Part shown: positions 3,801 to 56,194 of the stretch, piece by piece
How positions within the stretch are numbered: position 1 is the stretch's first letter
Layout: every line of letters starts with the position of its first letter
Made by a program: the position numbers and the translations under genes
From: an uncultured Clostridia bacterium
Lineage (GTDB): Bacteria; Bacillota; Clostridia; Christensenellales; UBA1242
Direction: 5' to 3'
DNA length: 64,000 bases
Assembly: GCA_947625515.1 (NCBI GenBank)
Contig: CANQOO010000006.1
Span: forward strand, 1,139 to 65,138
Notes under the pieces: model-generated
Told to the model about the DNA's origin: nothing
What the model saw: the letters and a program-made list of their open reading frames with translations, nothing else
Databases searched by the model: none

Positions 3801-3926
3801 GAAGATAATTATATTATCCTCCCTTCATTTTGTCAAGCGAACTTTCGACAAAATCCGCTGAAAAGGCAAAAATAGAAGAATAATCAACCTCCATTTTGGA
3901 AAAACTATTCAAATGGAGGAATTTTT

Positions 3927-5192
3927 ATGAAATTTAATCCGTTTTTGGAAAAACCAAAGAAGCTTGAAAGCATCATCATGAGTTGGAAAGACCTTGCCCC
4001 GCAGCCATACAAAAAATTTGAAAGCAGTCCTTACACACGCGTGCGATGCATTTTGATGAACGGCACTGAGTATGAGGCGGTGTGGTTTTCGCATCAATTC
4101 CACAGGCACAGTGCGGACAACGACCTAAGACGCACGCTGGCAATGGTGCGAAGAAGCGAGCAGCAGCAACAAAAGGTGATTGCCGCTCTTAAACCGGTGG
4201 ACGAAAACTTGCTGGAAACCACAATCGGCTATGAGCAACTCGCTGTGGACCTTACGGCTTTCTTGGCACAGCACGTCAAGGACAAACATGTGAAGGACGC
4301 CCTTGACTTTGCACTTTTGGAAGATTTTGACCACCTATATCGCTATTCCAATCTTCTGGAAACGGATATGGGTGCCAAGGCGGAGGATTATGTGGGCGAC
4401 TACACCGAAATCACGCCGGGCAGACCGACAATTTCGCATCATCGTCATCCATATGACTCCGTTCGCAAGCCAATTGACAACAAAAAGGCAGACCCGTTTA
4501 CAAAGTGTGCGGTGTCAATCATCACGGCAGCCGAGCAGCAGACGATGAACTATTATATGAACCTTGGCTCTTTCTACAAAAATCAAAAAGGGCGAGAGCT
4601 TTACACCGAAATTGGGATGGTGGAGGAGCAACATGTTTCGCAATATGGCAGTTTGATTGACCCCAACCCAAGTTGGTTTGAAATGTGCCTGATGCACGAA
4701 TATATTGAGTGCTATCTCTATTATTCCATGCTGTCCGACGAGAGCGACCCGAACGTCAAAAAGATTTGGGAGAGATTTTTGGAGCAGGAAATTGCACACT
4801 TGCACGCGGCGACTGAGAATTTGAAAAAATACGAGAAAAAAGATTGGCAAGAAGTCATCCCTGTCGGCGAATTTCCAGAACTTATTGCATTCAAATCCAA
4901 CACGGAATATATCCGAAAAATTCTGAAAGGCACTGTGGAAAACACCGCCTATCGCGAAGGCTATTGCGACGTCAACGATTTGCCGGACGATGCAAACTTT
5001 TTCAAATATCAAAACAAAGTCAACACGCGTCCAGATGACGAGGCGGGGCACGCCACAATCACCGAGCATATTGCTCAGTTTGGGCAGGACTATCGCTTCG
5101 AGACCAAGCCAAACCCTGTCAAAGATTTGCAGGACCGCAAGCAAGACAACAACACTCTTGGCCGCGTGAAAACTTCCGGTGGTGTAAAATGA
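3927..5192 (+). CDS. Ferritin-like (di-iron four-helix-bundle type) protein of unknown function
   Basis: 421-aa ORF with a GGAGG RBS 7 nt upstream. Repeated E..H-type motifs (EQQTMNYY, VEEQHVSQYG, LEQEIAHLH) are typical of rubrerythrin/ferritin-like superfamily proteins. No signal peptide. Confidence 0.55.
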   Translation: MKFNPFLEKPKKLESIIMSWKDLAPQPYKKFESSPYTRVRCILMNGTEYEAVWFSHQFHRHSADNDLRRTLAMVRRSEQQQQKVIAALKPVDENLLETTIGYEQLAVDLTAFLAQHVKDKHVKDALDFALLEDFDHLYRYSNLLETDMGAKAEDYVGDYTEITPGRPTISHHRHPYDSVRKPIDNKKADPFTKCAVSIITAAEQQTMNYYMNLGSFYKNQKGRELYTEIGMVEEQHVSQYGSLIDPNPSWFEMCLMHEYIECYLYYSMLSDESDPNVKKIWERFLEQEIAHLHAATENLKKYEKKDWQEVIPVGEFPELIAFKSNTEYIRKILKGTVENTAYREGYCDVNDLPDDANFFKYQNKVNTRPDDEAGHATITEHIAQFGQDYRFETKPNPVKDLQDRKQDNNTLGRVKTSGGVK

Positions 5193-5331
5193 TTCTGTTG
5201 CATATATTTTAATAGAGAAAAATATCAAAAAAAAGTATAAATTTTTGATAAAAAGTATTGATTTTTTCTCATTAATATGTTAAAATTTTTTCGTAACCAA
5301 GAAATTTTGAAAAATTACAGCAATGTTTGGT

Positions 5332-5337
5332 TATAAT
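5332..5337 (+). promoter_or_regulatory. -10 box (TATAAT) placed at the first unit of the antitoxin repeat array
   Basis: A perfect TATAAT at 5332-5337 is preceded by TTGAAA at 5307-5312 (a long, about 19-nt spacer). It overlaps the ATAAT that begins each repeat unit. Confidence 0.4.
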
Positions 5338-5455
5338 CAGCGGTGTTTCGCAGCCGGAAATGCGAATAATGATTTTCGGTGTTTCGCCACCGCAAAGTGC
5401 GAGCGATAATCAGTGGTGTTTCGCCACCAAAAGGGCGAGCGATAATTGAGAAAAG
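5333..5455 (+). ncRNA. Type III antitoxin-like RNA repeat array (ToxI/antiQ analogue), about 3.4 tandem units of 36-37 nt
   Basis: Units run ATAATCAGCGGTGTTTCGCAGCCGGAAATGCGA / ATAATGATTTTCGGTGTTTCGCCACCGCAAAGTGCGAGCG / ATAATCAGTGGTGTTTCGCCACCAAAAGGGCGAGCG / ATAATTGAGAAAAGGCGAGCG(partial). GGTGTTTCG cores start at 5342, 5378 and 5415 (spacing 36 and 37 nt). The array lies directly upstream of a ToxN/AbiQ-family ORF with a terminator in between. Confidence 0.65.
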
Positions 5456-5482
5456 GCGAGCGAATGCTTGCTTTTTCTTTTT
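5456..5482 (+). terminator. Intrinsic terminator between the RNA repeats and the toxin gene
   Basis: GCGAGC (5456-5461), GAAT loop and GCTTGC (5466-5471) form a 6-bp stem with one G-U pair, followed by TTTTTCTTTTT. A partial terminator at this position is a hallmark of type III TA loci. Confidence 0.5.
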
Positions 5483-5502
5483 GCTTGTGATAATATTTTG
5501 CT

Positions 5503-5997
5503 ATGGAAAGCGAAAAATTAAAATTTTATAGTGTAGATGTGGAATATGCGGGGTATTTGAGGCAGTTTGACTCAAAAGTTCCTTACATAGAATATCCTGA
5601 ACATAACAAATTTTTTGTTGGTGTGGTTTTTGAAATTAAAAATCAAAAATATTTTGCTCCGGTTTCTTCCTATAGAAAAAAAGACAGGGGAGTGTTTAAT
5701 ATTTATGACGGAGGCAACATCATCTCTTCTATAAGATTTAATTTCATGTTTCCTGTCGTTGATGGTGTGTATTCATTGATTGATATAAAAAACGATTTTT
5801 CAGGAAGCTATAGGGATCTTGTTCAAAAGGAATACTTTTATTGCAATCAGCATCGAGAAGAGATTCGCCAAATTGCTACAAAAACATATTCCAAAAGATT
5901 GAAAGCAGAAACCAATCCAAAACAAAAGACTTTTTATGATACAATTATGGTGAATTTCAAATTGTTGGAAAAACTAGCAAAGAAATATAGAAAATAA
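5503..5997 (+). CDS. toxN: ToxN/AbiQ-family type III toxin (endoribonuclease)
   Basis: The 164-aa ORF aligns by eye block by block with ToxN as I recall it. KFYSVDVEYAGYLRQFDSKVP matches KFYTISSKYIEYLKEFDDKVP. KFFVGVVFEIKNQKYFAPVSS matches KAFIGIVLEIQGHKYLAPLTS. IRFNFMFPVVDGVYSLIDI matches INLKFMIPIIEAEVSLLDL. The C-terminal VNFKLLEKLAKKY matches CNFSLLEEKYRDF. Confidence 0.85.
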   Translation: MESEKLKFYSVDVEYAGYLRQFDSKVPYIEYPEHNKFFVGVVFEIKNQKYFAPVSSYRKKDRGVFNIYDGGNIISSIRFNFMFPVVDGVYSLIDIKNDFSGSYRDLVQKEYFYCNQHREEIRQIATKTYSKRLKAETNPKQKTFYDTIMVNFKLLEKLAKKYRK

Positions 5998-5999
5998 AA

Positions 6000-6020
6000 A
6001 CGGCGTTTTTGCCGTTTTTT
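6000..6020 (+). terminator. Intrinsic terminator after toxN
   Basis: ACGGC-GTTTTT-GCCGT hairpin followed by TTTTTT, starting immediately after the stop codon. Confidence 0.6.
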
Positions 6021-6055
6021 GTGTATTTTTTTTGATTTTTATTTCTTTGCAATCG

Positions 6056-6230
6056 CAATTATAAATTGTAATATTTCAAATTGATAATTTTGTAAAATTC
6101 AATTATTTTTTTATTTTGTATAATTCAATTATAATTTTTTCAAATTGATAAATTCTGTATAATTCAATTATAATTTTTCGAATTAATAATTTTGTAAAAT
6201 TCAATTATAATATTTTTCAAACTTATAATC
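6056..6230. repeat. AT-rich tandem repeat array (about 37-39 bp period, one shortened unit)
   Basis: TGTAWAATTCAATTA cores start at 6091, 6117, 6156 and 6193. Full units resemble TGTATAATTCAATTATAATTTTTTCAAATTGATAAATTC. Full units (6117, 6156, 6193) contain the perfect palindrome AATTATAATT; the shortened 6091 unit lacks it. The array sits in a convergent intergenic gap with no ORF. Confidence 0.7.
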
Positions 6231-6244
6231 ATGCAACAGTGAAA

Positions 6245-8296
6245 TTACAATTTCTCAGCGACGTCCCATGCACGCCAGATGACAGTGCGGAGGCTGCCAA
6301 CCGAAAGTGCGTCGCCAACAATGTGAACATGTTTGCTTGCCTTGAATGCTGGTGCGGGAACATATCCCACCGCCGAGATGACACTGTCGCAGGCAAGTTT
6401 TGTTTCCTTGCCATTTTCGTCAACAATAATCACGCCGTCGGAGTCAATCTGTTTACATTTTGAAAGCAGGTGAACAGGAATTTTGTTGGACTTCATGAAG
6501 TCGCGAAGGAAGGAAGAGTTTGCCAGACTTAATTTGTTTGTCACCATAAGGTCCTGCATGCTTTCCACAATTTCTGGCTTTTTGCCGTCGTTGAAAAGTT
6601 GCATTGCAATTTCGCAGCCGGTTGAGCCGCCGCCGATAATCACCACCTTTTCGCCAACTTTGGCACCATTTAAAAAGTCCACTGCCTCAATTGCCTTGTC
6701 AAAGCCTGGGATGTTCAGTTTGCGTGGTTTGGCACCAGTTGCCACAACAACTTCGTCAGCGTCAAGTGCAGCAATGTCGGTGACCTGCGTGCCGAATTTC
6801 ACTTCAATCCCCATGTCGGCAATTTGTTTGCGATACCACTCCAAAAGTTTTTTGTCAGCTTCTTTAAAATCAGGTGCGGCGGCAGGAATAAATACGCCAC
6901 CAAGTTTGTTTGTCTTTTCATATATTGTGCATTTATGCCCACGCATGGTGGCAACGCGAGCAACTTCCATTCCGCCAATGCCGCCGCCAATAATGGCAAT
7001 GCGTTTTTGCTTTTTCGCCGGTTTAAGGTCGTGCTTGCCTCCGTCCATAGTCTGCGGGTTGAGGGCACAGCGGCTCATGTGGATGCTGTCCGCCATCGAG
7101 CAACCGTTGGCAATGCCGTGATAGTGGCTCATGCACAGGCAGGCGTTGTGGCAGCGAATGCACGGCATGATGTCGTCCGTTTTGCCTTCCATCATTTTTG
7201 TCACCCAATGCGGGTCGGTCAAAAATTGTCTTGCCACGCCCATCGCATCAATTTTTTCTGCTTTAATCGATTTTGCCGCTGCCTCTGGCTCCATTTTTCC
7301 CGCACAAACAACAGGAATATCCACAAATTTTCTGATGTGTTCAACATCGCTCAGGTTGCAGTTGTTTGGCATATATTGTGGCGGATGAGCCCAATACCAA
7401 GCGTCATATGTGCCGTTGTCGCAGTCCAGCATGTCATAGCCGGCGTCTTGCAAATATTTTGCCGCTTTTTCGCTTTCCTTCATGTTTCTGCCAACTTCAA
7501 CAAACTTTTCGTCCGGCATTGCACCTTCGCAGAAACCTTTTGTCTTGCTGACAACGGAATATCTTAACGAAACAGGATAATCTTCCCCACATTCCGCTTT
7601 GATGGCTTTCACAACCGCTGTGGCGAAACGGAAACGATTTTCAAAACTTCCGCCATATTCGTCCGTGCGGTGATTGGTGTATTCGGTGGTGAATTGGTCC
7701 AAAAGATATCCCTCATGCACAGCGTGAATTTCCACACCGTCAACGCCAGAATCCTTGCATTTTTTTGCCGTCTTTGCAAAAGCGGAAATCATCTTTTCAA
7801 TTTCGCGTTTTGTGACTGCTCGGCAGGTGACGCCTTCCGCCCAACGGGACGGCAGTTCGCTTGGGGAGGCACAAAGATAGGAAATGTCAAAAATTGGCTT
7901 CACAAGCTTGCCTAAAAATTTGTTTTTCAGCATCGGGACCATGTTGTTTGGAATGGAAAACGAGCGGCCAAACCCGGCGGTGAGTTGAACAAAAAGTTTT
8001 GCTCCCGTCTTGTGCAGTTCGTCCATATATGGCTTCAATTTTTTGAACGCACCGTTTGCCTTATAAAGCCACTGCCCGCCCATAAGATTTTTCAGCGGAG
8101 CAATGCCCGTGATGAGAAGCCCAGCGTTGTTTTTTGCGATGTCCATAAAAAAGTCAGCGGCGTCCTTGTCAAAATGATGTGGCTCCATCCAGCCGAAAAG
8201 CGATGTGCCACCCATCGGGCACAGCACAATTCGATTTTTAATTTCCAAGTTCCCAATTTTCCAAGGTGTGAAAAGCGGTTCAAGTGTTTTTTCCAT
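6245..8296 (-). CDS. Old-Yellow-Enzyme-type FMN oxidoreductase fused to an FAD/NAD(P)-binding domain (2-enoate reductase / 2,4-dienoyl-CoA reductase family)
   Basis: 683 aa. The N-terminus WKIGNLEIKNRIVLCPMGG...GVDGVEIHAVHEGYLLDQF is an OYE TIM-barrel signature. A Cys cluster CIRCHNACLCM...C is the Fe-S motif of this family. Two Rossmann motifs are present (IAIIGGGIGGME, VVIIGGGSTGCE). Confidence 0.85.
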   Translation of the reverse strand: MEKTLEPLFTPWKIGNLEIKNRIVLCPMGGTSLFGWMEPHHFDKDAADFFMDIAKNNAGLLITGIAPLKNLMGGQWLYKANGAFKKLKPYMDELHKTGAKLFVQLTAGFGRSFSIPNNMVPMLKNKFLGKLVKPIFDISYLCASPSELPSRWAEGVTCRAVTKREIEKMISAFAKTAKKCKDSGVDGVEIHAVHEGYLLDQFTTEYTNHRTDEYGGSFENRFRFATAVVKAIKAECGEDYPVSLRYSVVSKTKGFCEGAMPDEKFVEVGRNMKESEKAAKYLQDAGYDMLDCDNGTYDAWYWAHPPQYMPNNCNLSDVEHIRKFVDIPVVCAGKMEPEAAAKSIKAEKIDAMGVARQFLTDPHWVTKMMEGKTDDIMPCIRCHNACLCMSHYHGIANGCSMADSIHMSRCALNPQTMDGGKHDLKPAKKQKRIAIIGGGIGGMEVARVATMRGHKCTIYEKTNKLGGVFIPAAAPDFKEADKKLLEWYRKQIADMGIEVKFGTQVTDIAALDADEVVVATGAKPRKLNIPGFDKAIEAVDFLNGAKVGEKVVIIGGGSTGCEIAMQLFNDGKKPEIVESMQDLMVTNKLSLANSSFLRDFMKSNKIPVHLLSKCKQIDSDGVIIVDENGKETKLACDSVISAVGYVPAPAFKASKHVHIVGDALSVGSLRTVIWRAWDVAEKL

Positions 8297-8466
8297 ATTT
8301 CCTCCATTTCTTTTTAAATCTTTTGCAAAGTCTTTCCTTAATCTAAGTCATTTTTAAATTGTCCAAGTTTAAAGTCTTTCTCTTTGCTCTCAGCTGTTTT
8401 CATTTTAAAATTTCATAGCACATTATGTCAAATAAATTATGAGAATAATTAAAAATTGCATTTTGT

Positions 8467-9381
8467 TTACATAATATCACGCAAACATTCCGTCACTTTT
8501 GACATATGTTTCTCGGATGCCATGATTGTGATGAGAATGTTGTTTTTATGGTCGCAAATGATATATTGTCCATTGCCATCGCGAAAAACAATATCGTCTT
8601 TTGAAATCCAAGTGAAATAACCGGCAGAAAGTTTTGGGAAAACACGCTCTTTTTTGTAATAATCGTGACAATCAAATTGGGGCTTGGTCATTTCCTGTAT
8701 CCATTTTTCTGGCACAATTTGCTTTCCGTTAAATTTTCCATAATTGAAAAGAAGTTGTCCCAATTTGTGAAAGTCTTTAAAGTTTAAATATAAACCCGTT
8801 GCACCGGCACAGTAATTCCCAAAATTTTCCCGTTTAAATTTTTTAATTTGCAAAGGTTTAAAAATTCTTTCATTCACAAAATCCGAAATGTTCATTCCAA
8901 AATTCTCTTGAAAAAACACAGATAAAAGATATGGCTCAACATTTGAGTATGTGAAATGTGTATTTGGCTCATATTTGAGCGGTGTTTCAAACAAAACGTC
9001 GAGAAGCTTAAACTTGTCCAAAGTTTCAACATGAGATTTATTAAACATCATTTTCTCAAAACCTGTTGAGTGTGTTAAAAGCGTTCTGATTGTCCACGCG
9101 TCAAATCTTTTGTCAGGCTTGACCAAAGAAAGATTTTTTAAAGTAGGGAAAACTTTTGTATTTAAAGAAAGCGGTTCTCCATTTTTACAAACAAACTTTT
9201 CCTCTATCGCAATTCCATAAGCAAAAGCAATCAAAATTTTGGCACAAGAGCGAAGTTCGTGCAAAGAAATTTTGTTTATTTCTCTTAATTCGCAAATCCC
9301 CCCCCCGCTTTCCACAACAATGCTGTCAACTGCAACATCGTTTTGTCTTGCGTTTTTCAAAAATTCTTCAATCAGTTTCAT
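8467..9381 (-). CDS. Serine hydrolase of the beta-lactamase/transpeptidase-like family
   Basis: 304 aa with an SxxK motif (LRSCAKILIAFAYG) near the N-terminus and size and spacing typical of class-C-like esterases/FLP proteins. No signal peptide. Confidence 0.55.
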   Translation of the reverse strand: MKLIEEFLKNARQNDVAVDSIVVESGGGICELREINKISLHELRSCAKILIAFAYGIAIEEKFVCKNGEPLSLNTKVFPTLKNLSLVKPDKRFDAWTIRTLLTHSTGFEKMMFNKSHVETLDKFKLLDVLFETPLKYEPNTHFTYSNVEPYLLSVFFQENFGMNISDFVNERIFKPLQIKKFKRENFGNYCAGATGLYLNFKDFHKLGQLLFNYGKFNGKQIVPEKWIQEMTKPQFDCHDYYKKERVFPKLSAGYFTWISKDDIVFRDGNGQYIICDHKNNILITIMASEKHMSKVTECLRDIM

Positions 9382-52340: not shown

Positions 52341-53015
52341 ATGACAACAAAGAAAAAACTTCTCACAGCACTTTCAATGTTCGCATTGGTGGCAGTTGTT
52401 GCAGCAGTTTCCGTAGGAATCACGTTTGCGGCACTGAGTGGACAAGTTACATCTCAATTCAAAATCTCTTACACTGCATCCAACGTTGAAGCAGAACTTC
52501 AAGCAAAATATTCAACTGATGGTGGAAAAACTTACACCGCCATTGAAGTGAATGGAGCAGGGGACGGCGATAATCACACAATTAAATTTGAGAAAACAAC
52601 TGAAACTGCACAAAACAGCAAATCATTTAAGGACACAACCAACCTTAATTTTAAGGATAAGGAAAACTTCTTGGTTATTGCATTCTACTTCAAGAACACA
52701 TCAACATCAAGCAATAAGTTGGATATCACACCAAAATTTACACCAACTACCAGTGATGCAGAAGGCAAGAAGAATGTAACTGTCACTTATAGTTGGTTGG
52801 ACAGCGAGACTGGCGGCGTCAGTGGTTTCGATACATTCTCCACACCATCTCCTATTAACACTGATATAACCTCAAATTTCACTAATGCAGAAGAGTTGGA
52901 CGCAGAGGTTGAAGCAATCCTTTTTGTTAAGGTTGAAATTACCGAAGAAATCAAGGATGCAACTTTTGCGGGAACATTCACTTTCGACCTTAAAAATGCA
53001 AGTGAAGCGGTTTGA
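52341..53015 (+). CDS. TasA/camelysin-like secreted protein with SipW-type signal peptide (paralogue 1)
   Basis: MTTKKKLLTALSMFALVAVVAAVSVGITFAALSG fits the SipW-cognate signal pattern (KKK...hydrophobic...G.T.AAF/L.., compare TasA GGGTWAAFND). The C-terminal ATFAGTFTFDLKN resembles the F.F.F.A.Q strand of the TasA family. AAAGGAG RBS. Confidence 0.8.
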   Translation: MTTKKKLLTALSMFALVAVVAAVSVGITFAALSGQVTSQFKISYTASNVEAELQAKYSTDGGKTYTAIEVNGAGDGDNHTIKFEKTTETAQNSKSFKDTTNLNFKDKENFLVIAFYFKNTSTSSNKLDITPKFTPTTSDAEGKKNVTVTYSWLDSETGGVSGFDTFSTPSPINTDITSNFTNAEELDAEVEAILFVKVEITEEIKDATFAGTFTFDLKNASEAV

Positions 53016-53263
53016 TTGAAGCGTTAAGGAACATCAGAAAACTTCTTAAATGCTTAGTAAGTTGAAACTGAACAATTTGCGAAGTTAAAACTTGACAAAT
53101 ACTTATCAAGAGTTTGAGGAGATTTGATTGGGCGAACATTGTGTCAGCGATGCTGAGCAAACGCAAAAAACAAAAAAGTTGACAGTCATCTTGCAAGGAG
53201 GCTGGAAACGAAAAGTGGCAGCAGGGCGGAGGCTTGGAAAACAACTTAATATTTTGGATTATC

Positions 53264-53317
53264 CTTTCTCGTGATGTCTTTGATTAGGCGGGTATTGCGG
53301 GGGGGGGTAATTTTTTT
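53264..53317 (+). terminator. Terminator-like long hairpin after paralogue 1, with a G9 tract as its 3' arm
   Basis: CCTTTCTCG (53264-53272) can pair, with G-U pairs, to GCGGGGGGGG (53298-53307). An inner hairpin lies between, and TAATTTTTTT follows. Confidence 0.4.
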
Positions 53318-53449
53318 GACAAAAATGGACTACATTTAAATTTTCAGAACATTTTGCAAAAAGTTCTCCCCTTCTCGTGCGAGACCAAGCGAAAGTGCAT
53401 TTTGCGAATAGATGTTTGTCAAAGGCACTCGCGAGAAAGTTTAGATATA

Positions 53450-53566
53450 AAGTTTTGAAACTTTCTTCAAAAAAGTTCGGGTGGGAAAGAATAGATTGTT
53501 TTGCCAAATCACAATCATATTCGGACGATAATGGGAAACACAAAAATTTAATAAGGAGAAAACAAA
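53450..53566 (+). promoter_or_regulatory. Conserved leader module, copy 2 (palindrome AAAGTTTTGAAACTTT, hairpin 53490-53523)
   Basis: AAAGTTTTGAAACTTT...GTTCGGGTGGGAAA-GAATAGATTG-TTTTGCCAAATCA-CAATCATATTC-GGACGATAATGGG...AAGGAG. Confidence 0.55.
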
Positions 53567-54247
53567 ATGACAACAAAGAAAAAACTTCTCACAGCACTTT
53601 CAATGTTTGCATTGGTCGCTGTTGTGGCTGCAGTTTCTGTTGGAATCACGTTTGCAGCGTTGAGCGGAAATGTTAAATCCACATTTAACATCACATACAC
53701 CGCATCTAACGTTGAAGCAACAGTTACTGCTCAATATTCTCTTGACGGCAAAAGACCAAATTATCTTGGCTCATCTGGCGATGCAAGCGTTGGCACATTG
53801 AATGACATGCAAGCAGGCGAATCGAAAGAAATCAAATTTGAGCTTGCAACAACAAACGCTGATGCTCAAACCAAGACTTTTGATGCAATAACAAACAAGA
53901 CATTTGCTGACCAAGACTCTTCAATCTACATCAAGTTCACATTCCAAAACGACAGTGCTGACTATGCATTGAAAGTTACACCAACTTTCACCCCAAAACA
54001 AGAGAACAAGAATGTAACTCTAAACTATTACTGGGATGAAACTGGAGCGGCTGCATTGCCATCATCCACCACAACATTTGTAAGCGGAAACATTGGTGAT
54101 GCTGAACATGTAATTGCTGCTAAAACTAGTGCCGCTGTTAAACATGTTCTTTGGATTCGCGTTGACATCACCGACAACATCAAGGAAGCTACATTCTCTG
54201 GTGACTTCGGATTTACACTTGTAAACGGAGACCATGTTGAACCTTAA
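53567..54247 (+). CDS. TasA/camelysin-like secreted protein with SipW-type signal peptide (paralogue 2)
   Basis: The N-terminal 34 aa are identical to paralogue 1. The mature N-terminus is NVKSTFNITYTASNVEA and the C-terminus is EATFSGDFGFTLVN. Confidence 0.8.
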   Translation: MTTKKKLLTALSMFALVAVVAAVSVGITFAALSGNVKSTFNITYTASNVEATVTAQYSLDGKRPNYLGSSGDASVGTLNDMQAGESKEIKFELATTNADAQTKTFDAITNKTFADQDSSIYIKFTFQNDSADYALKVTPTFTPKQENKNVTLNYYWDETGAAALPSSTTTFVSGNIGDAEHVIAAKTSAAVKHVLWIRVDITDNIKEATFSGDFGFTLVNGDHVEP

Positions 54248-54278
54248 GGGTTAGACAAAATACTTAAAATTTAATTAT

Positions 54279-54333
54279 CCTTTCTCGCGTGCCTATGATT
54301 TGGCGGGTATTGCGGGGGGGGGGGAAATTTTTT
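54279..54333 (+). terminator. Terminator-like long hairpin after paralogue 2, with a G11 tract as its 3' arm
   Basis: CCTTTCTCGC (54279-54288) can pair with GCGGGGGGGGGGG (G-run 54314-54324). AAATTTTTT follows. Confidence 0.4.
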
Positions 54334-54473
54334 AACAAAAACAGGCACGGAGAAATTCCAGTCCTGAAAAACAAATGCTGAAAAAGTCATAAATTTCTCC
54401 CCTCTCTCGCGACATTATGAATTTTGCGAATAGTTTTCGCCCAGTCATGGCACCCGAAACAGGATTTTTAAAA

Positions 54474-54594
54474 AAAGTTTTGAAACTTTCTTTAAAAAAG
54501 TTCGGGCGGGAAAGAACATTTTGGTTTTGCCAAATCACCAAATGTTCGGACGATAATGGGAAAACAAAAATTTAAATAAGGAGAAAAACAAAAA
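54474..54594 (+). promoter_or_regulatory. Conserved leader module, copy 3 (palindrome, hairpin 54514-54547)
   Basis: AAAGTTTTGAAACTTT...GTTCGGGCGGGAAA-GAACATTTTGG-TTTTGCCAAATCA-CCAAATGTTC-GGACGATAATGGG...AAGGAG. Confidence 0.55.
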
Positions 54595-55245
54595 ATGACA
54601 ACAAAGAAAAAACTTCTCACAGCACTCTCATTGTTTGCATTGGTTGCTGTTGTAGCTGCAGTTTCTGTTGGAATCACCTTCGCAGCTTTGAGCGGAAGTG
54701 TTAAATCCACATTTAACATTACTTACACCGCTTCAAACGTTACCGCAACAATGAAGGCAAAATATTCCACTAACTCTGCAACTTCTTTCACTGGCTTGAC
54801 ACCAAAAACAGGCTCTGGCACTGGCGATTCAATTACATTCGTTGCTGGCGATGCAACAGGAACTGAAAAAGAGTTCAATGCGGTTACAGCAACATTTGCT
54901 GGCCCTGATAAAGACATCTATGTTGCATTTTCATTTGAAAATCAACACGCTAGTGACGCTATGAACGTAACCTTGACATATAACAAGGGCACAGACTCTA
55001 ACGTTACAGTGACATATGCTTGGGATGCAGCAGGAACAACTTATGGTGAATCTCAGGAAGATGCCGGCACTCATCCAGATGTATCTACAAGCCTTCCAAG
55101 TGGCAGTGCAATTGCCGCTCAAAAGATTGAACATGGCAAAACAGCCGTTCTTTGGGTTAAGGTTCACATCACATCCAACATCGAAAGTGCAACATTTGGT
55201 GGAAGCTTCAGCTTCGCTCTTCAAAATGTTGCCGCTGCTGCTTAA
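54595..55245 (+). CDS. TasA/camelysin-like secreted protein with SipW-type signal peptide (paralogue 3)
   Basis: Same signal peptide family. More than 90 percent identical at nucleotide level to paralogue 4 over the first about 300 nt. C-terminus SATFGGSFSFALQN. Confidence 0.8.
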   Translation: MTTKKKLLTALSLFALVAVVAAVSVGITFAALSGSVKSTFNITYTASNVTATMKAKYSTNSATSFTGLTPKTGSGTGDSITFVAGDATGTEKEFNAVTATFAGPDKDIYVAFSFENQHASDAMNVTLTYNKGTDSNVTVTYAWDAAGTTYGESQEDAGTHPDVSTSLPSGSAIAAQKIEHGKTAVLWVKVHITSNIESATFGGSFSFALQNVAAAA

Positions 55246-55277
55246 TTGCACTGAGTTGCGAATACATTTCTAAATTG

Positions 55278-55334
55278 TCTTCACTTTTGACGCCTATGAT
55301 TTGGCGGGAGTCCTTGGTGAGGGCAATTTTCTTT
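55278..55334 (+). terminator. Terminator-like hairpin after paralogue 3
   Basis: TCTTCAC (55278-55284) pairs with GTGAGGG (55317-55323) around the inner hairpin CGCC-TATGATTT-GGCG. T-rich CAATTTTCTTT follows. Confidence 0.35.
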
Positions 55335-55405
55335 GACACTCGCGACGTCATGAATTTTGCGAATATCTTTTGCCCAGTCATGACACCCGAAACTGGATTT
55401 TTAAA

Positions 55406-55525
55406 AAAGTTTTGAAACTTTCTTTTAAAACAGTTCGGGCGAAAAGGAACATTTTGGTTACGCCAAATCACCAAATGTTCGGACGATAAAGGCAAACACA
55501 AAAAATTTAATAAGGAGAAAACAAA
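55406..55525 (+). promoter_or_regulatory. Conserved leader module, copy 4 (palindrome, hairpin 55447-55480)
   Basis: AAAGTTTTGAAACTTT...GTTCGGGCGAAAAG-GAACATTTTGG-TTACGCCAAATCA-CCAAATGTTC-GGACGATAAAGGC...AAGGAG. Confidence 0.55.
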
Positions 55526-56194
55526 ATGACAACAAAGAAAAAACTTCTCACAGCACTCTCATTGTTCGCATTGGTTGCTGTTGTGGCAGCTGTCTCTGTT
55601 GGAATCACCTTCGCAGCGTTGAGCGGAAATGTTAAATCCACGTTTAACATTACTTACACCGCTTCAAACGTTACTGCAACAATGAAGGCAAAATATTCCA
55701 CTAACTCTGCAACTTCCTTCACTGGCTTGACACCAAAAACAGGCTCTGGCACTGGCGATTCAATTACATTCGTTGCTGGCGACGCAACAGGAACTGAAAA
55801 AGAGTTCAATCCGGTTAAAACAACATTTGCTGGACCTGATGCAGACATTTATGTTGCATTTTCATTTACAAATCAACATGCTACTGACGATATGAACGTA
55901 ACCTTGACATACGACAAGGGTGGTGACAAAAATGTTGAGGTGAAATATGCTTGGGATGCAGCAGGAACAACTTATGGCTCATCTCAGGTTGATGCTGGCA
56001 AACATCCAACAATCTCCACAGCCCTTCCAAGTGGCAAGGCAATTGATGCTCAAAAGATTGAACATGGCGATACAGCCGTTCTTTGGATTATGGTTCACAT
56101 CACATCCAACATTGCTGATGCAACATTTGGTGGAAGCTTCAGCTTCGCCCTTCAAAATGCTGCCCCTGGTAGTGAGGTGTCTTCACCTTGGTAA
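55526..56194 (+). CDS. TasA/camelysin-like secreted protein with SipW-type signal peptide (paralogue 4)
   Basis: As paralogue 3. C-terminal DATFGGSFSFALQN plus a short extension AAPGSEVSSPW. Confidence 0.8.
   Translation: MTTKKKLLTALSLFALVAVVAAVSVGITFAALSGNVKSTFNITYTASNVTATMKAKYSTNSATSFTGLTPKTGSGTGDSITFVAGDATGTEKEFNPVKTTFAGPDADIYVAFSFTNQHATDDMNVTLTYDKGGDKNVEVKYAWDAAGTTYGSSQVDAGKHPTISTALPSGKAIDAQKIEHGDTAVLWIMVHITSNIADATFGGSFSFALQNAAPGSEVSSPW

Follow-up and report, generated by a model that had tools for sequence, protein, structure and literature searches.

Type III toxin-antitoxin loci have been described as single-promoter operons (PMC5086642) whose balance is tuned by terminator read-through (PMC5086642, PMC4147584), and within the ToxIN family the repeats span 31-62 nucleotides (nt) in 1.9-5.6 copies, with a toxin of 168 amino acids (aa) on average (PMC3401426). 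In ToxIN_Pa, from plasmid pECA1039 of Pectobacterium atrosepticum, and in ToxIN_Ec (structures 2xd0/2xdb/2xdd and 7d8o), a promoter is followed by tandem units of ~36 nt, a terminator and toxN. In this work, we examine a 64-kb stretch of contig CANQOO010000006.1 from an uncultured Clostridia bacterium (hereafter the window), in which the region 5193-6020 of the + strand has the same order: three repeat units, a terminator, a toxN gene directly behind the array on the same strand, and a second terminator (Table 1). Repeat length, copy number and toxin size all fit the published ranges, and we consider it very probable (about 0.88) that the module is a functional ToxIN-family type III toxin-antitoxin system acquired by an uncultured, Christensenellales-like gut lineage of Clostridia. 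Judged from its sequence, the module is genuine, intact and under selective maintenance; its toxin, RNA and layout all lie within the known family, so that what is new is one more member only. A first-pass annotation of the window had listed here a TATAAT box, three repeat cores, a hairpin with a T-run, a 164-aa open reading frame (ORF) and a second terminator, and all of these are present; the canonical type III order that it proposed is borne out by the sequence and by terminator folding.

Beyond this shared order, the window toxin resembles ToxN_Pa and ToxN_Ec in fold (template modelling (TM) score 0.76-0.77) and keeps K33, T/S52 and S53, and the window unit is 65% identical to theirs and forms the same two nested stems with a loop of <=7 nt, as in group I (PMC3401426). 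The systems differ in that the window has three units that are 67-81% alike, whereas ToxIN_Pa and ToxIN_Ec have 5.5 near-identical ones, and the toxins are only ~30% identical. The window junctions read UA↓AU or UG↓AU instead of the classical AA↓AU (the arrow marks the cut), its units are preceded by a leader of ~45 nt with a hairpin, and its toxN is devoid of a ribosome-binding site and has a promoter-like element that abuts the ATG. Furthermore, the window module is chromosomal, in a Clostridia metagenome-assembled genome (MAG), whereas the classical ones reside on enterobacterial plasmids.

AbiQ/antiQ, from plasmid pSRQ900 of Lactococcus lactis (4glk), is like the window system a ToxN-family member from the Firmicutes; the PADLOC AbiQ profile matches the window ORF at 2.8e-31, the solved protein matches it in sequence (E 1.5e-10) and in fold (TM 0.73), and both toxins have a Ser at the nucleophile position (AbiQ Ser51; PMC5086642). 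Its ~3 repeats of ~35-36 nt also correspond to those of the window in number and length. AbiQ differs in being plasmid-borne and in its cut site, A↓AAA as against the AU-type junctions found here. The best structural match (TM 0.80) is with ToxIN_Bt of Bacillus thuringiensis plasmid pAW63 (4ato; Rfam family RF02519), which shares the layout and has 2.9 repeats of 34 nt (PMC5086642). RF02519 hits pAW63 and not the window, however, and the covariance model R1, which we built from other arrays (see below), does not hit pAW63; these reciprocal misses indicate that the two RNAs share an architecture and not a recognisable sequence. The CptIN and TenpIN systems follow the same type III logic of repeats, terminator and endoribonuclease toxin, but the window toxin is ToxN by Pfam, not CptN or TenpN (the CptN structure aligns at a TM score of 0.44), and their repeats are longer, with means of 45 and 51 nt (PMC3401426).

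The toxin and its repeat RNA

The 164-aa product had been likened to ToxN/AbiQ from the letters of the sequence alone, with a profile search suggested as a check. That search identifies Pfam PF13958 (ToxN_toxin) as the sole Pfam family matched, with an E value of 6.7e-37 and 127.6 bits (cut-off 25) over profile positions 1-159 of 159. Besides the PADLOC AbiQ match, the sequences of solved toxins are recovered with E values of 5.7e-15 (ToxN_Pa, 2xd0), 2.3e-14 (ToxN_Bt, 4ato) and 3e-13 (ToxN_Ec, 7d8o), in addition to AbiQ; NCBIfam returned no match for the toxN product. An AlphaFold2 model (predicted local distance difference test (pLDDT) 91.5, predicted TM score 0.87) has only four strong matches in Foldseek, 4ato, 2xd0, 7d8o and 4glk, with TM scores of 0.73-0.80, and the ToxN fold, a twisted beta core with surrounding helices, is shared by this predicted structure. 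Weaker matches were CptN (4rmo, E 1.5e-2) and MazF/Kid (TM <=0.3). The active site of ToxN_Ec is composed of Lys33, Thr52, Ser53 and Lys55 (PMC8860590), positions that read K36, S55, S56 and R58 in the window toxin; a Ser in place of Thr52 is native to AbiQ, in which that residue, Ser51, is the proposed nucleophile (PMC5086642).

For the relatives we use locus codes (L007, L008, L014, L163 and L165, with toxins 52-89% identical to the window ToxN). Against the closest of these, L163 and L007, the ratio of nonsynonymous to synonymous substitution (dN/dS) in toxN is 0.06 at a dS of ~1.0-1.5, with synonymous sites near saturation, which argues for a maintained, functional gene. Over the same divergence, the three units (5340-5448) are identical at 105/109 positions to those of L163 and at 95/109 to those of L007 (87-96%), which is more conservation than neutral divergence would leave in the array. 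The first terminator is likewise similar to that of L007 (35/38), and the spacer before the ATG much less so (10/21). Metagenome and viral scans gave only toxins <=45% identical to the window ToxN, and a second protein search contributed one member (P0010) of the clade to which the window belongs.

The array itself is recognised by a 10-mer core, GGTGTTTCGC, of which the window contains exactly three copies (at 5342, 5378 and 5415, hence with start-to-start spacings of 36 and 37 nt), where shuffled sequences would be expected to hold 0.22 copies and 0/100 reach three. Pairwise, the three units are identical at 26/37, 24/36 and 30/37 positions (67-81%), and the "about 3.4 units" counted by the first-pass annotation correspond to three full units and a 13-nt partial copy, AAAAGGCGAGCGA (5451-5463), from which the 5' arm of the terminator that follows is made. 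The array escapes Tandem Repeats Finder, also with the minimum score set to 30, because its units are too divergent; as such, this is not evidence against an array.

More direct support for the nature of the repeats is provided by comparison across loci. We gathered homologues of toxN in species genomes, in metagenomes and in assemblies, and stacked 27 loci; in nearly all of them, toxN directly follows 2-4 tandem units, each 35-43 nt long. From these, 23 units (one per array, the window and its two nearest relatives being left out) were aligned with MAFFT, which is blind to structure; they align column for column, with the consensus AnGGTGTTTCGCnACCG..TAAGnGCGA..TTTAAT, and comprise ~20 other Clostridia loci as well as the classical ToxI unit, AGGTGATTTGCTACCTTTAAGTGCAGCTAGAAATT, read from the E. 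coli plasmid pTA120-2. The window units fall into the same columns. Covariation in this alignment describes an H-type pseudoknot, with stem 1 GGUG/CACC and stem 2 UUCGC/GCGAR: 90.8% of the cells are paired and 30 cells carry a double change, which 0/500 column shuffles reach, whereas moving the partners by 1-3 columns leaves 40-46% paired (37-62% over the 23- and 70-unit sets together). The result holds on 70 distinct units, with 96 double-change cells. The compensatory changes replace GGUG/CACC of stem 1 by CAGU/ACUG or GGCG/CGCC, and UCGC/GCGA of stem 2 by CCGC/GCGG, CCAC/GUGG or CUGC/GCAG.

R1, the covariance model built from the same 23 units, finds three abutting units in the window and nothing else there better than E 0.6; over 224 kb of loci it has 73 matches, all of them upstream of toxN genes and on the toxN strand. 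The published template of group I ToxI has two nested stems of 3-5 base pairs (bp) with loops of ~3 nt, 1-2 nt and, for the third, <=7 nt (PMC3401426), and unit 2 of the window, GGU-guu-UCGC-c-ACC-gcaaagu-GCGA, fits it; the G before the second strand of stem 2 is present in units 2 and 3. Unit 2 is identical to classical ToxI at 24/37 positions, roughly as close as unit 1 is to unit 3. The first-pass annotation had called the unit 1 hairpin degenerate, a description that we do not share: the third pair of its stem 1 is retained in the form of a U-G wobble, as in the orthologous unit of L007.

Several observations weigh against a conventional, functional ToxIN assignment. In the toxin, the Lys55 position is occupied by Arg, a conservative change (and by Asn in L014), and Trp57 and Gln117 of ToxN are not conserved. 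An Rfam search gave no relevant match for the array, either at the gathering score or at E values up to 10, a miss ascribable to the narrowness of RF02519 and one with no bearing on membership of the wider ToxI class: this is a 34-nt, Bacillus-type model that matches pAW63 at 40-59 bits and misses classical ToxI as well (L120). Minimum-free-energy folds of single units are no better than those of shuffled sequences, which is expected since such folds do not model a pseudoknot and this one would be stabilised by protein; covariation was counted for this reason. The junctions UG↓AU (after unit 1) and UA↓AU differ from classical AA↓AU, so that the cut positions proposed below are guesses based on homology. 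Last, ToxN expression may differ from the canonical read-through model, given that toxN has no ribosome-binding site.

We have considered whether the repeats are something other than ToxI. That they represent a new, undescribed family of ToxI-like RNA, as the first-pass annotation had supposed, would accord with the empty Rfam search, with blastn searches of 72,556 plasmids and 50,697 phage records that returned nothing for the array, and with 185,579 species genomes in which the core pattern has no exact match. It is nevertheless very improbable, in that the units align column for column with units of other Clostridia and of an E. coli plasmid, unit 2 has the stated identity to classical ToxI, stems and loops match the group I template, a model constructed without the window units finds all three, and the Rfam family by which novelty might be gauged also misses the classical RNA. 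We give still less weight, and in practice almost none, to the idea that the repeats are no RNA antitoxin at all and serve as coding sequence or as DNA sites such as iterons or operators. Two short ORFs do overlap the array (5327-5449 and 5379-5531), but the 50-aa ORF is stopped by a TAG in both L007 and L163 (ATTGAG to ATTTAG), so that the constraint acts on the RNA and not on a peptide, and it also runs through the terminator; we rejected these small ORFs as genes. In addition, substitutions between and within arrays preserve the pairing of two helices, as is the signature of an RNA, and 73/73 R1 matches lie on the toxN strand. The reading that we retain is of three units of the known ToxI class.

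A few observations concern the wider set of arrays and searches. The Rfam ToxI family finds the Bacillus thuringiensis type only, and the founding Pectobacterium/E. coli-type repeats are missed by it (L120, L121). Rfam matches to MicX, SraB and ctRNA were set aside as chance matches driven by the terminator, far below their gathering scores. The end units of the L008 and L014 arrays (3813-3945 in both loci) are partial: stem 1 has no 3' strand in the first, nor stem 2 in the last (CGGCGATTCGCTGCCGAAGAAATC), which leaves two complete units in each. At L035 (1569-1676), stem 2 varies within one array, as TTTGTC/GACAAG, TTCTTC/GAAGG and TTTCGC/GCGAAA, and compensatory differences of stem 2 within arrays are also found in L023, L025, L028 and L030; arrays are evidently not always homogenised copies.

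Table 1. Coordinates of the module features and of the gene preceding it in the window.
Feature	Position	Strand	Evidence and remarks
p421, 421-aa gene	3927-5192	+	Best match 88% to a rabbit-gut MAG
Candidate main promoter P1	5258-5286	+	TTGATT 5258-5263, 17-nt spacer, TGT-TAAAAT extended -10 at 5278-5286 (TGTTAAAAT); consensus scan
Leader hairpin	5293-5334	+	GUAACCAAG (5293-5301) pairs with UUUGGUUAU (5326-5334), 9 bp; -8.2 kcal/mol, z -2.2
TATAAT	5332-5337	+	-10 box of the first-pass annotation; coincides with the motif of the first inter-unit junction (AUA↓AU)
ToxI-like unit 1	5340-5375	+	R1 22.4 bits, E 1.3e-5; stem 1 GGU/GCC, stem 2 UUCGC/GCGAA
ToxI-like unit 2	5376-5412	+	R1 28.2 bits, E 3.8e-7; 24/37 identical to classical ToxI
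ToxI-like unit 3	5413-5448	+	R1 28.5 bits, E 4.9e-5 over the whole window, 3.1e-7 locally
Rho-independent terminator, toxI/toxN	5448-5482	+	14-bp stem 5448-5479 and T-run; -18.7 kcal/mol, z -4.63
Candidate second promoter P2	5468-5496	+	TTGCTT 5468-5473 in the 3' arm of the terminator, 17-nt spacer, TGA-TAATAT extended -10 TGATAATAT at 5488-5496
toxN, 164-aa ToxN/AbiQ-family endoribonuclease toxin	5503-5997	+	Pfam, PADLOC, PDB, AlphaFold2/Foldseek, dN/dS
Terminator after toxN	5996 to ~6019-6025	+	-11.7 kcal/mol, z -3.74; symmetrical, scores on the minus strand too

Candidate promoters, unit junctions and terminators

The TATAAT at 5332 had been taken for the promoter of the array. The hexamer is there, but its role as a promoter is uncertain: the sole -35-like hexamer available to it is TTGAAA at 5307, 19 nt away, and the same ATAAT recurs at three of the four junctions (in the 5332 box, at 5405-5409 and at 5441-5445; after unit 1, at 5368-5372, the motif is ATGAT). 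It may instead be the first inter-unit junction. A better candidate, conserved in position, is P1: L163 and L007 share its -35, its 17-nt spacing and its TG-extended -10 and differ in the spacer sequence, and in L008 and L014 an equivalent promoter is followed by a 5' hairpin and then by the units. We therefore lean, with modest confidence, towards P1 as the main promoter in place of the TATAAT. The arms of the leader hairpin are invariant in L163 and L007, and a hairpin also precedes the first unit in several other ToxI arrays; if P1 is the promoter, this hairpin would form the 5' end of the toxI precursor.

The junction motifs are in register with the classical ToxI cut site, which the cognate toxin cleaves at AA↓AU (PMC5086642). 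By analogy, cuts are predicted between 5335 and 5336, 5371 and 5372, 5408 and 5409, and 5444 and 5445, in the contexts UA↓AU, UG↓AU, UA↓AU and UA↓AU, and the predicted processed RNAs would accordingly extend over 5336-5371 (36 nt), 5372-5408 (37 nt) and 5409-5444 (36 nt).

The start of toxN departs from the described arrangement. Most genes of the window have GGAGG-type ribosome-binding sites, and toxN is without a Shine-Dalgarno sequence; nor is there an upstream in-frame start, since a TAA stands at 5491-5493. The candidate promoter P2 has its extended -10 ending 6 nt before the toxN ATG, and a TGnTAnnnT motif is found 5-7 nt before the ATG in 6/6 members of the clade (the window, L163, L007, L008, L014 and L165) and in 0/~47 other toxN loci with a placeable start, most of which carry a normal Shine-Dalgarno sequence. 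In 5/6 clade members, the -10 is preceded at exactly 17 nt by a TTGCNT hexamer, and the arrangement is common to the group of the window and to the L008/L014 pair despite unrelated terminator stems.

These features raise the possibility that toxN has a promoter of its own, with a -35 embedded in the terminator, from which a leaderless mRNA would begin at or near the ATG at 5503, independently of read-through of the toxI terminator. The free variation of the 5-7 nt between motif and ATG, together with the low identity of the spacer to that of L007, would suit such a promoter, and leaderless starts are plausible in this organism, as a single 9402-aa ORF at 21365-49573 (+), with a signal-peptide-like N-terminus, has no Shine-Dalgarno sequence and a TTGTAA-17-TATAAT that ends 7 nt before its ATG. 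The proposal is, however, motif-based throughout, and AT-rich spacers readily mimic -10 boxes; the spacer between the -35-like and -10-like elements is 19 nt in L163, and a simple consensus scan did not call P2 (8/12 matches). The motif could instead be an A/U-rich enhancer of translation on a read-through transcript, or a site recognised by ToxN, as GAUAAU is also the tail of the units; we prefer a -10 box to a ToxN cleavage site in the 5' region of toxN, given that relatives, with GATATT or GATATA there, keep the T, A and T positions that typify a -10. In the literature searched we found nothing on internal promoters or a leaderless toxN, and the published type III loci are single-promoter operons (PMC5086642). 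On balance, a separate leaderless transcript is a tentative proposal to which we assign somewhat less than even odds. At L125 (~1430-1462), a toxN locus with 43% identity, there is again no Shine-Dalgarno sequence and a TATAAT lies 8 nt before the ATG, so that a leaderless-like layout may extend beyond the clade of the window.

Neighbourhood and probable acquisition

The gene preceding the module, p421, assigns the window to an uncultured, Christensenellales-like lineage of Clostridia. It is without a Pfam or NCBIfam match, and yet species genomes, for the most part of uncultured Clostridia, contain at least 587 stretches that match it; among the best 80 species representatives of these, the identity is 58-88%, which describes a widespread family with no assigned function. 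In 0/80 of these best representatives does toxN stand beside p421. Where a gene for an R3H/Jag protein (jag) was in the stretch fetched, the nearest toxN-free representatives have p421 followed by jag within 0.7-1.6 kb, and L007, with a p421 that is 94% identical, has the order p421, toxIN, a kinase-like gene and jag. The module adjoins p421 in the window, L007 and L163 while the other neighbouring genes change. More distant relatives place it elsewhere: in L014 (3800-8200), toxIN lies inside a phage tail-fibre module, immediately upstream of the tail-fibre genes, and in L008 (2527-3556) it lies beside a two-gene cassette, the first product of which has a weak SocA_Panacea Pfam match, with DnaB_2/IstB-like replication genes. 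The toxins of these two loci are 58-62% identical to the window ToxN, and their contexts indicate that the clade travels on mobile elements.

The comparison of related genomes supports the earlier description of the module as an inserted islet, and it looks acquired. This argument is founded on the absence of toxN from 80 related loci and on the differing contexts of the relatives, not on exact insertion borders. L041 serves only in part as an empty site: at the equivalent place, its p421 is followed by a 183-aa, P-loop kinase-like ORF with no clear orthology to the 183-aa gene of the window (E 0.06).

The region behind toxN also varies. Compared with L007 (4499-4621), the window (6245-9381) has an extra oxidoreductase gene (Oxidored_FMN and Pyr_redox_2, 683 aa) and an extra gene of the beta-lactamase family (304 aa), situated between toxIN and a cytidylate-kinase-like gene, which amounts to a second insertion or deletion at the same spot. 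The genes for toxN and the 683-aa oxidoreductase converge, and their 3' ends flank another tandem array at 6087-6228, AT-rich and made up of ~3 units of 39 nt (consensus ATTTTGTATAATTCAATTATAATTTTTTCAAATTAATAA), each with a near-consensus TTGATA-18-TATAAT. All four copies of its core, TTGTAWAATTCAATTATAAT, that the window holds are in this array (0.01 expected), which the counterpart region of L007 lacks; candidate explanations are tandem promoters for antisense transcription, iterons or an insertion scar. Farther away, at 52341-56194 (+), four tandem ORFs of 216-226 aa (beginning at 52341, 53567, 54595 and 55526) all start with ATGACAACA behind near-identical AAGGAGAAAA ribosome-binding sites, and by these shared starts and sites they appear to be tandem paralogues.

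Proposed operation and significance

If the module works as its described relatives do, a promoter, most likely at 5258-5286, would yield a toxI precursor composed of a 5' hairpin, three pseudoknot units of 36-37 nt and a strong terminator, with transcription from P1 beginning at the foot of the leader hairpin and most toxI transcripts stopping at that terminator. ToxN, as a sequence-specific endoribonuclease, would cut the precursor at its AU-rich junctions, and each freed pseudoknot would bridge two ToxN monomers into a closed, inactive ring of RNA and protein. Should the supply or stability of the antitoxin fall, for instance upon phage infection, free ToxN would cleave cellular and phage RNA and arrest the cell. 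Precursor processing, the ring complex, toxicity, neutralisation and phage defence are all steps that we infer by analogy, the strong selective constraint upon the array lending processing and neutralisation indirect support, and abortive infection is suggested by family membership.

In a chromosome, the main role of such a module might alternatively be selfish maintenance, in the sense of an addiction that stabilises an acquired segment, and not phage defence. Plasmid stabilisation is an established property of type III systems (PMC5086642, PMC4615649), and this module is chromosomal and stays beside p421 in the window, L007 and L163 as the neighbours change. We regard this as unlikely to be the main role, though distinctly less so than the alternatives considered for the repeats, as ToxIN_Pa, AbiQ and other members confer abortive infection (PMC5086642) and the occurrence of a relative within a phage tail module (L014) fits a conflict between phages or between phage and host; maintenance and defence are in any case not exclusive.

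The known ToxIN modules are joined here by one from an uncultured, Christensenellales-like lineage of the gut, and it is seen that one recognisable class of ToxI sequence and structure spans enterobacterial plasmids and many Clostridia. That class is without a usable Rfam model; the present alignment and covariance model could seed one, and with it type III antitoxins in metagenomes would become open to annotation. The sole point of wider interest in the locus itself is the loss, specific to one clade, of the ribosome-binding site of toxN, together with the promoter-like element embedded in the terminator before it. If the reading of that element as a promoter is true, the toxin gene has lost a ribosome-binding site and gained a promoter, which would be an undescribed way of setting the ratio of antitoxin to toxin in a type III system, and a leaderless toxN would change the accepted picture in which a single promoter and terminator read-through determine that balance.

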